Assembly (NCBI GenBank): GCA_028279275.1
Contig: JANQOB010000006.1
Location: 188,799-252,798 of the forward strand
Source of the DNA: Gammaproteobacteria bacterium
GTDB taxonomy: Bacteria; Pseudomonadota; Gammaproteobacteria; UBA4575
Length of the DNA stretch: 64,000 nt
Direction: 5' to 3'
A program made the position numbers. Positions 48,001 to 54,000 of this stretch are shown here, piece after piece. How positions within the stretch are numbered: position 1 is the first letter of the stretch; each line of letters starts with the position of its first letter.

Positions 48001-51000
48001 TGATGTGATTGTGATGCAGCAAAAGCATCAGTTACGAAAATTTTTAACACCGAATAAGCGGTGATGACGGTTCTACTTGTCTACAATTGGTATCTTTTTG
48101 CGTCAAGTCGATGTTTCACGCAGCAAACTTGACTTAAGAAAAGGCTTACCTAAGCAATTCTATAATTGCAGCTTTTATCTACAAATTTAAAACTTTAAAG
48201 CTATAGCATGAGTTATGGCTTATTTAGTAAAAACCTGCATCCCGAACACTCAGGCGATGTTTCACGCTTTTTTGAAAAAGTGATGACGGTTTTGTAGAGA
48301 AAAGTTTTAGAGATCTTAAACTCGGAGATTTGTCTACAAGTGAGGGCTTTTTTAAAATTACTTGTCTACAATAAAGCGCTTTTTACTATGTCACTGAAAA
48401 GTAGTGGTATTCAATTTTGATGACGGTTTTGTAGGGGAAAGTTAGTTTATACAGAATCTTAAATCTGTTGGTTGATTTGTCTACAAGTGGTACCTTTTTC
48501 ATTATTCACATTTAATCAACCACTTATGAATTACGCCTTGAGAGATAATATTCGTGCATATGTTGCAAGGTTTCCTCTAGTTCCCTCACCCTATTCACTA
48601 AATAACTTTCTCCGTAGACTTCGTCTTCAAGCTCAGCAATTCTCGCTTTCAACTTCCCTTCATTCTCAAGCAGTGACTTGTAACTGGTAGGTGTAGGGAC
48701 CAATCCCATTTGTTGCATCAACATGTAGACACTTTTACTAGACCATTTACCACCAAAGACTCCTCGATAACCCAGCATGTTTAGTCTCTCTGCAATAGTT
48801 ATTGATGGTACTTGTTGGTTAAACAGTTCTGTTACCAATTCAAGCATCTCAGGATCATGTCTTGGATCAACACGAGTTGCTGTTAATGGATTAATGATTA
48901 AGTCCTTATGTTGTTATTGTTATATGTATTAACGTAACCATGTTGCACACCTTTGCAAATGAGTTGTGGTAAATAGTATTTCTCATTTGAGCCTACCCCA
49001 CTGCAAACAAATGCAAGCATGCTTAAACCGATTTAGGTCTACCTCAATAAACCTAAACTCCACCAATGACACAGCGCATGTCACACTAAGTCATGTTCAA
49101 CTTGACCTAAACACACCTTAGCCCGCATAAACATTGACTTGTATACTCGGCAACGTACCGAGTCGTCCATGCTTAACAGACTGTTGCTCGTGTTAAATAA
49201 AGGTAATTTTGCGTTCAGATTGGTGTTTGGATAGGCATACGGGGGGTATCGCGGCGCCAACTTCATCATCATAGGCTCTCACAAATTTCTTATATTTTTA
49301 TCGGAGCCACACATTCAAATAAATTTGTCCGAATCTAAAAGAAATTGTGAACCGCAACATGTCAAAAAGAGGATAAATATCATACGGGATTCTATGTACC
49401 CGTGTGAAATGGAATCAGCAGCTTACGTTCTATGTGTACTTGTGTTTAACCGTATGTGTGATTCTAGGCGTGGTAATTTTGTGGTTTTTTGAGTAAAAAT
49501 TCTCAAAAATAGCCCATTTGTTGCCCGGTTTATTATCGATTTTTTTTACGGATTTTAACTGCTTCCTCAACTGCATTCGATAGGTGCTTACTTATCCAAG
49601 CATATCTCTCTTTGCTGTTACTTCCACCTGGGTTATAACACTTAACAATTGTTGAAAGTTTTTTCTTCGATGGCCCATGAGTAATGTAATCAAATGGGTT
49701 GAGCCCCTTATTTGAAGTTAATCCTTTTAAATTCTTTAGACCATGAATGCATATACCCACTACACCCATTCCATCATCCCACGACTTTATAATTTCATAA
49801 TTAATCCACTTTCTTCTAGCTGTATTAGTACCAACTAAAACAATTGTGCAGGACCTACCATGCATCTGAGAAGCAATCCAATTTTTAATAGCTTGCTCAC
49901 CCTGACTTTTTATTGATTCCCAATTATTATCATTCGCAGGTCTATTGCCATCAACTATACCCATGTTTCTAACTTGTGCTGCTCGGTTGCAATCTGGTGC
50001 ATAGTGAAAACTATAAAAACATTGACGAGCCATAAAATCACTCCTTCATTTAAATACTAAGAGAACAACGAGTATTGCTGTAACAATTGATCCATGAAAA
50101 ATAATCAAAGTTTTTGAAAAAAATGTATCCCACCACATTCGCGTCCCACCGCTTAACCCCTCCAATTTCATAGAAAAATCGATTTCCTCAGGATCAATCA
50201 TTCTCACTTTTTCATAAAGATCTCTATAGCTTCTCTCTAGTGCTAAAAAATATGCATCTAATCCCCAAAACGCTAGTGCAGGTAAGTATGCGAGAATAAT
50301 AAATCTAATATTTGAATTTCCAGTAGAGAGTGCAAATAATGCAGAAACAAGAATTACGCTCCAACCTTTAAGTAAGAAGGAGTTAGTTGATAATCGATTA
50401 ATAACGCCTTGGATAAAATCTAGATGTTTTAGTTTTCTATCCATTAACTCAATATTTAATGTGGTTCAGTTCCCCGAGTATCAATCCAACCCGCGGTGTA
50501 AATACTGAGAGTTGAATCTGCCTCTGTCTTTTCTGAAATTGTAAATTCCATAATTGTTGGTACCTTATATTGATTTTCACTAGGTAACCACAAGTTGCGT
50601 AGTGCAATTGGAGTTTTGTCATTAGCAGTAGTTGAAAAAGATGAAATATATTCAGAACCTTTAACACGCACTTTGCCAGCGATTCGTCCTTTATCTGAAA
50701 TAAATAACAATAATAAGTAATCTGTTACACTTGGAGGAACATTTTTCATTTCAACTTCAGTCCAAACCTCTTCTAATGCTTTCGATTCTTGATATACCAG
50801 CTCCATCATTTGCTGTATATCCGTGGTATTTGATTGTAATTGAGCTAATTGCTCTTTCAATATATTTTGTTCTTTTGAAGCTATTTCTTCCTTTTTTTTC
50901 TCTTCAATTTTACCAAAATGATATGATCCATATCCACCTAATGCGGTCAATATGATCCCGCAGAGTAGTATCAATTGACTAAGCGTTTGCAACGTCATAT

Positions 51001-54000
51001 GTTTTTACGTTTACTACTCTCCAAGTGAACCTCTATTTAATGCTGCAAAAATATTTTTTACTTTTAAAACAATTTTATATAACTCAGATTTTAGAGTTTT
51101 ATAGAAGGTAATACCTTTCATGAGTCTTACCTCCAATGCGTTACGCATCGGATCTATTTCACTAGAAAATGCTTCATTAAATTTTTTATCGTTTTCCTTC
51201 CAGGCGTCTTTATTAGCACTAAATAATAATAATGATGCATCGAATAATTTATTTCTTAATGCATTAGCCATATCCAACTCTTCGCTTTCTAACCCATAGT
51301 TAAGAGCAACAAGAGCTTGCACTTTTGAAGAATTTACCAAATCATCTATTTTATTTTTATGAACTGTAATGTTTTCTCGAGGATAGTTAGCTTCTTTACC
51401 TGCATATTTTAGTTTGTAGTAGATATTTACTTGTCGTAAATGAAAATATATTTCATCAAAGAATTCTACAACCGATGCAGCAGTTTCATATTTTCTATCG
51501 CAGATAACACGAACATGTTGATAAAGTATTGCAAGTACTGTTGCTATTAACGCACCAAGTAGCCCAGAGATTAAATTATCCATAGTAGAATATGCTGTAA
51601 AGATAGTCTCATAGGCTCTTAAAAAATTATTCAATTATCCCTATAAACGGCATCATCGCTTTACGTTGCGCTGCCTTTAGTCGTTGCACGCGTTTATCTA
51701 AATTATTAGCACGCGCTAATTGCTCTTGATAATTTTCAGATATCTGATTCCGTAAGTATTCACAAATTCTTAGTTCGCGCTCACATTCTGTTTCGTTGTG
51801 ATTATTGGTCATAGCTTTTATTCAAAATAATTTTATTATTAATAAAAATATACCGATAAATACAGGGATAGCATCTGCAAGAATCCTGTAATCAAAAATA
51901 ATTAAGTTGATTAAAGCTCTAAATTTATGACTCTTTGTTGCATGGCTGCTTGTATGTTTCCATATATCATATGAATCGACATTGTCATCAGTAAGTATTC
52001 CTACATCTGTTACTTCGATGTTCGCATCTTTTAAAACAATTCCATTTAAAATTGATACATACGCGGAGTATGGGCCAGATATATAATGGAAAGTATCACC
52101 ATTCTTTTTGTACGTTGCAGTGTAATAATGCCATGTTGCTTGTATATGCATTGCTATAAACCAAAACAAAATTACAGGCAGAATATAATTGCTAACAATA
52201 TTCCATGAAATATTTCCTTCTAACCCCCCGTAGCGCACACCAGTAATCTTAAAATTCGCAAACTCAATCAGCACCACTAAGAAACTTGTATAAATTAGTG
52301 CACGTCTTTCTGATTTGTATCGATCATATGCTCTTATAAATTGAGCTTCATATGTGTCCATTTATCTCATCCATCCCAACTTCAATTCAAGCATCATTCG
52401 CTCGTTGCATTATAAAATCCTTCTGCGATTAGTTATAACACGTCCATATAATAGTATTTGCCATTATTACAATCTCTGGATATTACATAATAAATATTGT
52501 CAATTGCTACGCAAGTACCAAATGAAAGGCATGAAGATATTCTAAGTTTGGCAGCTTCAAAATTGTGCTCATATGGATATGATTTACTTGCTTCAAGCCC
52601 TTTAAGTATCGGATAAAGAGCGAGCCAAATATCAAAAATGTATCTATGTTTTTCATTGAATGACTGAATATGTGCAATTACACCTTGATTAACAAGAGCT
52701 TTGGAATCAAGAAAGCGAAAGTGTGTATCAATATAATCTTTAATCGATGTACCGTCTTCAAAATCTTTCTCAAGAAAGTTTTCTAATTTGTTTATATAAA
52801 AATTAATATCTTCACGTGCGGAATTAATAAAAGCTTGATCATGTTGGTGCTTGCCAATTGAGCGTTGAATTAATAATTGATTAGCCAGTATAAACAGGGC
52901 TACAAGTGCTATGAGTGGAGAATATATACCAGTTAAATAAGATCCGAACTCAGACCAATTAGAGTGCTCAGTAGATAGTGAAAATCCAAATTGATAAATA
53001 TAGAGCAACAGAGGTAGCAGTAGGATACAAACTGCCAACAAAATCAATAATATTAGTTTGGCTTTAACTTTCAATTGATACGAGTTCTTATAGCAATATA
53101 TCTATTAATGCTATTCATTTCTTTATGTTTATCACAATATTTCTGGAGAATCTTTAATGGCCGCTTTGGGTCGTTTGCAGACATTTGATTTACATTATTC
53201 GACTTAGATTTATCTATTATAAGGGTGTATCTAAAAAGTTATAGACACAAAACACCAGCGACTCTACTGCTGTGACAAAATTGTGTCATGTTACCGTTTA
53301 TTTACTACGATTAAGGCACAATTTATAAAGGTAAGGTTGTAACTGTGTTATGTAAGCGTATGTTTTTATTTACGCTATTTTTTAGATCTTTGATTCGAAG
53401 CCAGGTACTCTATCCAGCTGAGCTACGGGCGCACATCAAGATTATAACGGGTTGCTAGATGTTTTGGATTAGCACAGTATCCACACATGGTAGATTCAAC
53501 CCAACATTACTCTAAATTTTTAGCATTTCTGCAACTATTTTATCCATCTTTATATAAACAAATCAGTGCCCTTTCTGAAAATTCGGATCTCGTAGAAGCG
53601 GATTTAATCTGCTCAAATAATACTCATTCTTTTCGAGCCATTGTCTACAGTGAGGGCATTACAAAAGATGGTGAGCTGCTTGAAATACATGCGGGTAAAT
53701 ACTCAATAGCACCTTATTCATGGGATTGGCGCTGGGTATTTGCCTTAAAAATTTTATTTAACGGAAATAATATTTTTCCAATTAAATTCAAACAAAAAGT
53801 AATCGCGCTTCCTACAGGAAAGCACCCTGTTACCGATAAATTTTTTAATATTCTGCAAGAGGAGTTTAACAAAGCGGTTATTGAGATTATTAAATCTGCA
53901 AAACATGATAACTTACCAATACATGAAGGTTTCATCGAGTATTGCAAATCTATCAATATTTAAAACAACTGTTAACTGGGTTTGGAAAGTTTTAATTCTT

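Follow-up and report, generated by a model that had tools for sequence, protein, structure and literature searches.

The stretch of DNA considered here, referred to below as the window, comprises 64,000 nucleotides (nt) from a gammaproteobacterium of the UBA4575 lineage (GenBank assembly GCA_028279275.1, contig JANQOB010000006.1, positions 188,799 to 252,798 of the forward strand). Direct reading of the window reveals seven tightly packed open reading frames (ORFs) on the minus strand, between positions 49533 and 53074. The two at the downstream end, thsF (50046-50444) and thsB (49533-50033), very probably constitute a type V Thoeris system of two genes directed against phages, located as cargo at the distal extremity of an island integrated in a tRNA-Arg gene. 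The five upstream genes are designated g1 to g5 in the direction of transcription. From g1 to thsB, the intergenic gaps are 71, 9, -8 (an overlap), 15, 11, and 12 nt. Codon usage is coding-like for all seven ORFs in their own frame and for none of the other five frames. The number of hydrophobic segments in the products is two for g1, three for g2, none for g3, one each for g4 and g5, three for thsF, and none for thsB. No Pfam match to SIR2, SLOG, Macro, SLATT, or P-loop domains was found in any of the seven proteins, and a flanking ORF of 158 amino acids (aa) similarly gave no SIR2 or SLOG match in Pfam. The original prediction for this DNA had placed seven genes at these positions and had seen no Walker, SIR2, Macro, or SLOG signature in the products of the six upstream ones; the ORF positions and the Pfam scan agree with it on both counts.

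The thsB gene encodes a 166-aa TIR-domain protein that is a predicted phage sensor and signal synthase. The protein matches the Pfam model ThsB_TIR (PF08937) with an E-value of 2.2e-26 and, in PADLOC, the models ThsB1 (E=6.3e-66) and PDC-M50B (E=2.3e-63 over residues 1-164). Among the structures in the PDB, it matches 8wcf with E=3e-37 and the solved Bacillus cereus ThsB (6lhy/9b7d) with E=1.4e-18. The glutamate of the WxxYEI motif is present: E80, in the segment WINYEI, is aligned to the Glu of RWVRYEI in the B. cereus protein. The catalytic glutamate of B. cereus ThsB is said to be E85, reportedly from the work of Ka et al. in 2020 and Ofir et al. in 2021. The Pfam and PADLOC matches bear out the earlier assignment of the last gene of the cluster to the ThsB-type TIR proteins.

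In a preprint of December 2025, Yirmiya et al. widened Thoeris to eleven verified types (bioRxiv 10.64898/2025.12.03.692087). Type V consists of a TIR protein and an effector with three transmembrane (TM) helices, annotated as DUF2270 and renamed ThsF by the authors. The verified type V TIR was found to make 3'cADPR upon infection. Added 3'cADPR is toxic only to cells with the system of B. thuringiensis DAR 81934, and the Tad1 sponge lowers the defence conferred by this B. thuringiensis type V system. AlphaFold3 predicts that ThsF assembles into a ring, a channel-like oligomer with positive pockets between protomers. Two-gene versions of the system suffice for defence. The authors warn that the type labels in their Table S1 are noisy (bioRxiv 10.64898/2025.12.03.692087). 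TIRs labelled 'DUF2270 - Type V' in that table are 59-67% identical to the ThsB of the window.

The thsF gene encodes a 132-aa protein with three TM helices that is assigned by homology to the type V Thoeris effector family and to PADLOC PDC-M50A. The latter model is matched end to end (residues 1-130) with E=8.9e-51. The hydrophobic segments lie at residues 23-41, 49-67, and 113-131, and the AlphaFold2 (AF2) model of the monomer is all helical, with a predicted local distance difference test score (pLDDT) of 90.4. Because the preprint authors call the Table S1 labels noisy, the link to ThsF was tested directly. None of the Table S1 TIRs occurs verbatim in the loci and proteins gathered first, and the link was made instead via the sequence of the B. 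thuringiensis ThsB. The type V ThsB of B. thuringiensis DAR 81934, given in full in Table S1, turned out to be encoded at positions 3229-3987 of one locus (L087), with 251 of 251 residues identical. The gene lying 13 nt downstream of it encodes a 141-aa protein with three hydrophobic segments (P0246); the sole other neighbour on that side lies 464 nt upstream and encodes a 271-aa protein with no hydrophobic segments. P0246 is 40% identical to the thsF product of the window over 131 aa, that is, over the full length (E=5e-35). Since the 132-aa protein is homologous along its whole length to the protein encoded beside a verified ThsB, it is identified by homology as a ThsF and hence as a predicted type V Thoeris effector, which puts it in one family with the ThsF that was verified by experiment. 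This also supports the earlier proposal that the adjacent three-TM protein is the membrane effector of the TIR. In a family alignment drawn from Firmicutes, Proteobacteria, and other phyla, the invariant residues are L8, R17, F23, K26, W28, F59, W60, and E70, and all of them are present in the window protein. The conserved basic residues of ThsF (K4, R17, K26, and R74) are consistent with positively charged ligand pockets.

A scan for ThsF with one genome per species yielded 222 stretches with a ThsF relative, the best 80 of which were examined. These loci span Pseudomonadota, Verrucomicrobiota, Acidobacteriota, Planctomycetota, Nitrospirota, Chloroflexota, Cyanobacteriota, Clostridia, archaea, and other groups. 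In 66 of the 80 loci, thsF directly adjoins a homolog of the ThsB-type TIR gene of the window. Four loci (L003, L022, L033, and L080) have a TIR of another class, TIR_2 or CAP12-PCTIR_TIR, downstream of thsF instead. Overall, thsF stands beside some TIR gene in at least 70 of the 80 loci. In 12 loci (L004, at positions 7400-8008, and 11 others), thsF is flanked by a further TIR gene, whose product is 52% identical to the other verified type V ThsB, that of Bacillus sp. 1NLA3E. These 12 are two-TIR type V loci, in which a TIR of the 1NLA3E clade is present besides the ThsB_TIR-type gene. On plasmids of Terribacillus, Priestia, and Klebsiella, too, ThsF homologs are encoded beside relatives of the B. 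thuringiensis ThsB. These plasmid pairs and the second TIR, like the invariant residues, bear out the identification of the 132-aa protein as a ThsF.

The genes upstream of thsF behave differently from thsB. Neither tblastn nor phmmer searches against the neighbouring ORFs detected g1, g2, g4, or g5 in any of the 80 ThsF loci, and a relative of g3 occurs in one (L001). Elsewhere, same-strand genes upstream of thsF encode membrane proteins in 5 of 40 cases. The closest relative of the window locus is L001, from a gammaproteobacterial metagenome-assembled genome. DNA similarity between the two extends from the start codon of thsF (50444) to the last 30 nt of thsB (49561), and none was found between the window and L001 upstream of the thsF start codon. 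The shared segment (49533-50444 in the window, 8001-8909 in L001) is a mosaic. The nucleotides of thsF are mostly identical, giving 96% identity at the protein level, and the nucleotide identity runs on through about the first 40 nt of thsB, which is then clearly more diverged (73% protein identity). The pattern suggests either recombination within thsB or a rapid diversification of the TIR sensor with a conserved effector. Because the DNA similarity to L001 is limited to thsF and thsB, the conserved mobile unit, as judged by comparing loci, is the two-gene thsF-thsB cassette, which is passed whole between lineages and occurs in many phyla.

Homologs of ThsF were also noticed on some 76 plasmids of Klebsiella and Escherichia, the majority of which are conjugative. 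On the one plasmid inspected, NZ_AP022022.1 of Klebsiella (L083), thsF comes right after a gene for a 250-aa TIR protein, beside genes for a DNA methylase and for partition. Enterobacterial plasmids may therefore often carry Thoeris systems that resemble type V. A three-gene variant is found on the Lactiplantibacillus plantarum plasmid NZ_CP017365.1 (L086, 1203-2896), where a TIR protein and a ThsF homolog are accompanied by a 153-aa protein with an AGS_C sensor domain (PF18134, E=2.4e-24).

Four ThsB homologs that are 70-72% identical to the window protein lie on long contigs. Two of them have ThsF upstream and one has a divergent ThsF-like protein downstream. The fourth (L161, 70% identical) is paired with a SIR2_2-STALD ThsA, i.e., it belongs to a type I system. 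In these pairings a single ThsB clade works with SIR2-SLOG as well as with ThsF effectors, the effectors being swapped around it. The pairing of a 70%-identical ThsB with a SIR2-STALD ThsA also ties this clade to a type of effector that responds to 3'cADPR.

From the verified type V systems of Bacillus and from type I Thoeris, we infer the following mechanism. ThsB would detect phage infection and, by means of the predicted catalytic residue E80, turn NAD+ into an isomer of cyclic ADP-ribose. The signal would most likely be 3'cADPR, because the verified type V TIRs make this molecule and because the 70%-identical ThsB partners a SIR2-SLOG ThsA. It would then bind in the positive pockets of oligomeric ThsF, which may be formed by two cytoplasmic helices, the conserved N-terminal amphipathic helix and the helix that follows TM2 (residues R17, K26, E70, and R74). 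ThsF would thereby open or disrupt the membrane, and the infection would be aborted.

Several observations weigh against the assignment of thsF-thsB to a self-contained type V system with this mechanism. In the study of Yirmiya et al., a type V system of Vibrio cholerae gave no defence in Escherichia coli, and the Bacillus sp. 1NLA3E system made 3'cADPR that was not toxic to the cells bearing it (bioRxiv 10.64898/2025.12.03.692087). The verified type V systems differ in the clades of their TIRs and in having thsB ahead of thsF. The TIR cluster to which the window protein belongs also holds type XI TIRs, whose signal is unknown. Owing to these type XI TIRs and to the non-toxic 3'cADPR of 1NLA3E, the identity of the signal in the subtype with a short ThsB is not certain. 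In addition, the seven genes of the cluster may be co-transcribed; their tight spacing is compatible with this, which leaves room for a functional link to the genes upstream.

A further observation of this kind concerns Pfam. The DUF2270 model (PF10028) gave no match at E≤10 for the window protein, for its homologs on plasmids, or for P0246, the effector of B. thuringiensis. The best score in the ThsF family, that of P0303, is sub-threshold (E=0.16, 12 bits vs. a cut-off of 25). The thsF product of the window has no Pfam match at all, and none of the 240 listed ThsF homologs has a precomputed Pfam domain. P0246 reveals a weak full-length similarity to PF24838, the '8xMP, octameric membrane protein family', with E=0.012, which is below the cut-off. 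As PF10028 could not be reproduced, the assignment to ThsF is made through homology to the verified effector and not through Pfam. The DUF2270 label used in the preprint appears to rest on a remote or cluster-level annotation, and we do not regard the mismatch as disqualifying.

Comparison with known systems places the pair nearest to type V. Like the system of B. thuringiensis DAR 81934, it has two genes, for a TIR protein and for a small three-TM effector; the effectors are homologous over their full length and share the same invariant residues. The adjacency of thsF and thsB (12-nt gap in the window), the three helices, and the TIR glutamate are likewise in keeping with type V. In contrast to the 252-aa ThsB of B. 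thuringiensis, the TIR of the window is a short 166-aa PF08937 protein of another clade, and thsF precedes thsB instead of following it. The system of the window belongs to a low-GC bacterium, whose closest relative (L001) likewise points to the Gammaproteobacteria, and it resides on a tRNA-Arg island. The two adjacent genes also match the A and B models of PDC-M50 in PADLOC-DB v2 end to end, although PDC-M50 is a computational candidate only, with no mechanism attached. In the searchable literature, no paper on PDC-M50 was found, and none on DUF2270 beyond the preprint (bioRxiv 10.64898/2025.12.03.692087). With type I Thoeris (B. cereus MSX-D12, ThsB plus SIR2-SLOG ThsA), the pair shares a TIR of the same ThsB family; however, the window cluster encodes no SIR2 or SLOG protein, and its effector is a protein of the membrane instead of an NADase. 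Type VII (ThsB plus SLATT ThsH) and type II (ThsB plus TM-Macro) are similar in combining a TIR signal generator with a membrane-spanning effector in abortive infection, but no SLATT or Macro Pfam match was obtained for the window proteins even at E≤10. The signals of these two types are canonical cyclic ADP-ribose (cADPR) for type VII and His-ADPR for type II (bioRxiv 10.64898/2025.12.03.692087).

Two parts of the original prediction do not survive this comparison. It had likened the 132-aa protein to SLATT effectors, which did not match and which define type VII instead. It had also taken the system to be undescribed; the pair is already described, both as PDC-M50 in PADLOC and as type V Thoeris, with the 59-67% identical TIRs of Table S1 listed under that type.

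The five upstream genes have no match in PADLOC, Pfam, or NCBIfam. The first, g1 (52433-53074, minus strand), starts with TTG, and its 213-aa product combines a pair of TM helices at the N-terminus with a helical domain; it is a co-oriented cargo gene outside the conserved system. It belongs to a widespread family of proteins of about 215 aa (669 clusters, formed at 50% identity, with a cut-off of E≤1e-3, and 167 with E≤1e-10), with the near-invariant residues P21, Y25, G49, Y51, W40, D89, C188, and D192, and which has no Pfam model. The AF2 model of g1 is confident (pLDDT 93.4) and all-helical, and its fold matches are uninformative. In 64 metagenome loci with g1 homologs, no conserved neighbour was found, and the homologs never occur with g2-g5, ThsF, or a TIR of the window type. 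There are weak matches of g1 in PHROG to phage proteins without assigned function; close relatives of g1 were not found in viral contigs.

The next gene, g2 (51822-52361, minus strand), encodes a 179-aa protein with three TM-like segments, has coding-like codon usage, and is regarded as orphan cargo. No homolog of it was found in plasmids or viral contigs. The possibility that g2 is a divergent ThsF paralog, raised by the shared three-TM topology, was rejected, as hhalign gave a probability of 0.7%. The smallest gene, g3 (51627-51812, minus strand), encodes a 61-aa soluble helical peptide. Its sole detected relative is a 69-aa ORF at positions 7150-7359 of L001 (40% identity, E about 1e-10), which lies two genes upstream of thsF. 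The gene between them in L001 (7398-7970), just before thsF-thsB, encodes a soluble protein of 190 aa that carries the motif RNAFSH (Rx4H, HEPN-like) and matches nothing in Pfam. The g3-like peptides may be part of a small variable module beside the cassette. Orphan cargo genes g4 (51014-51634) and g5 (50456-50998) are also on the minus strand. The former has a TTG start and encodes 206 aa, or perhaps 189 aa if translation begins at an internal ATG, and its product has a single TM segment; the latter encodes 180 aa, comprising a TM anchor at the N-terminus, a charged heptad-like stretch that, read by eye, is probably a coiled coil, and a C-terminal domain. No homologs of g4 or g5 were found in plasmids, phages, or viral contigs, and a protein of the 206-aa length of g4 is absent from the protein collection. 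For g5 there are weak PHROG matches, confined to the TM/helical region (holin and spanin-like). Overall, g2, g4, and g5 are singletons at 90% clustering, as is the case for g2, or are absent from the protein collection.

The gene cluster occupies the distal cargo end of an island of 16.3 kilobases (kb) in tRNA-Arg, farthest from the integrase. The tRNA-Arg gene was located by ARAGORN at 37057-37133 on the minus strand. A tyrosine integrase gene (37170-38201, minus strand; Pfam Phage_integrase E=2.6e-35) lies at the proximal end. The distal attachment-site repeat, at 53391-53433 on the plus strand, is a 43-nt direct repeat that is 98% identical to 37092-37134 within tRNA-Arg. The tRNA gene, the integrase, and the repeat of the tRNA end together delimit the island. 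An imperfect palindrome of 29-34 nt (TGnCCGCTTTnGGnC...GCGGACATT) is present in the window in six copies, all within the island; the positions recorded for it are 40714-40742, 41263-41296, 41696-41724, 42469-42502, 42547-42575, 44236-44269, and 53153-53186. A pattern search gave 4 matches vs. 0.00 expected, all between 41 and 53 kb. The copy at 53153-53186 (plus strand), a possible operator, is about 80 nt upstream of g1. The palindrome could serve as the operator of a regulator encoded on the island, or it could be a small repeat element. The earlier placement of the cluster in an integrase-bearing island at a tRNA gene, with an island-specific motif ahead of its first gene, is thus confirmed in each of these features.

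Some side observations were made on the island. The copies of the palindrome are mostly intergenic, ahead of minus-strand genes, and one is also found directly downstream of thsB in L001 (9291-9321). A gene for a trypsin-like peptidase lies at 41719-42438 (Pfam Trypsin_2 E=1.2e-7). Its product matches PDC-S45, a single-gene candidate in PADLOC (E=2.4e-18), and may thus represent a second candidate for defence on the island. The ORF at 45332-47110 encodes a 592-aa protein with a P-loop-like segment DCGIGKTT and weak DEAD/ResIII helicase matches (E about 4e-3), which may be the helicase that replicates or mobilises the island. No family matches were obtained for the small ORFs around it (47124-48847).

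The original prediction had joined all seven genes in one TIR/membrane defence system, in which the five upstream genes would serve as sensors, regulators, or co-effectors of ThsB and ThsF. The shared orientation, the spacing of 8-71 nt or overlap, the island motif upstream of g1, and the g3 relative two genes upstream of thsF in L001 can be cited for it. So can the failure to find a convincing internal terminator. Sites resembling promoters and terminators are no commoner in the cluster than in shuffled sequence. We nevertheless consider such a system very improbable, and the comparative data do not sustain it. The absence of g1, g2, g4, and g5 from the 80 ThsF loci, with g3 in a single one, the low frequency of membrane proteins among the upstream neighbours of thsF, the lack of ThsF, a window-type TIR, or g2-g5 beside the g1 homologs in their 64 loci, and the onset of homology to L001 exactly at the thsF ATG all argue for a two-gene unit, and two-gene systems are sufficient for defence (bioRxiv 10.64898/2025.12.03.692087). 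A different division of labour within the pair, in which the TIR is a toxic NADase effector that depletes NAD+ and the three-TM protein is its membrane sensor or anchor, has precedents, as in CBASS, Pycsar, TIR-pAgo, and Avs the TIR domain is an effector with NADase activity, and the preprint raises the same caveat for unverified TIR configurations. It seems very improbable here: verified type V ThsBs make 3'cADPR on infection, the toxicity of 3'cADPR is limited to cells bearing the B. thuringiensis system, whose defence is reduced by the Tad1 sponge (bioRxiv 10.64898/2025.12.03.692087), close homologs of the window ThsB pair with SIR2-STALD ThsA, which is a signal-receiving effector, and the conserved basic residues of ThsF fit ligand binding.

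We conclude that g1-g5 are separate cargo stacked with Thoeris, not components of the system. Some or all of them could be independent, undescribed determinants of membrane defence or exclusion, an idea that is compatible with the type V assignment of thsF-thsB and that we hold to be unlikely, though by no means negligible. It would fit their position at the cargo end of an island that also carries the PDC-S45-like peptidase, the size of the unannotated g1 family and its lack of a conserved partner, and the weak PHROG matches of g1 and g5. On the other side, nothing in the defence libraries matches g1-g5, and g2, g4, and g5, being without detectable homologs, have no comparative support. Rather improbable, in our estimate, is that g2-g5 are accessory or regulatory parts that modify type V Thoeris, or new membrane-acting defence genes co-regulated via the operator-like motif; the same holds for the separate idea that the short-ThsB subtype uses a signal other than 3'cADPR.

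In general, the two-gene system described here adds a taxonomically distant example of type V Thoeris, located on a tRNA-Arg island, and its practical value is modest. Since the ThsF family matches no Pfam model, annotation pipelines based on DUF2270 will miss ThsF. The g1 family, a large group of unannotated stand-alone membrane proteins, could be screened for a defence function. As regards thsF and thsB themselves, the comparison of close relatives indicates far stronger conservation in the effector gene than in the gene for the TIR protein.

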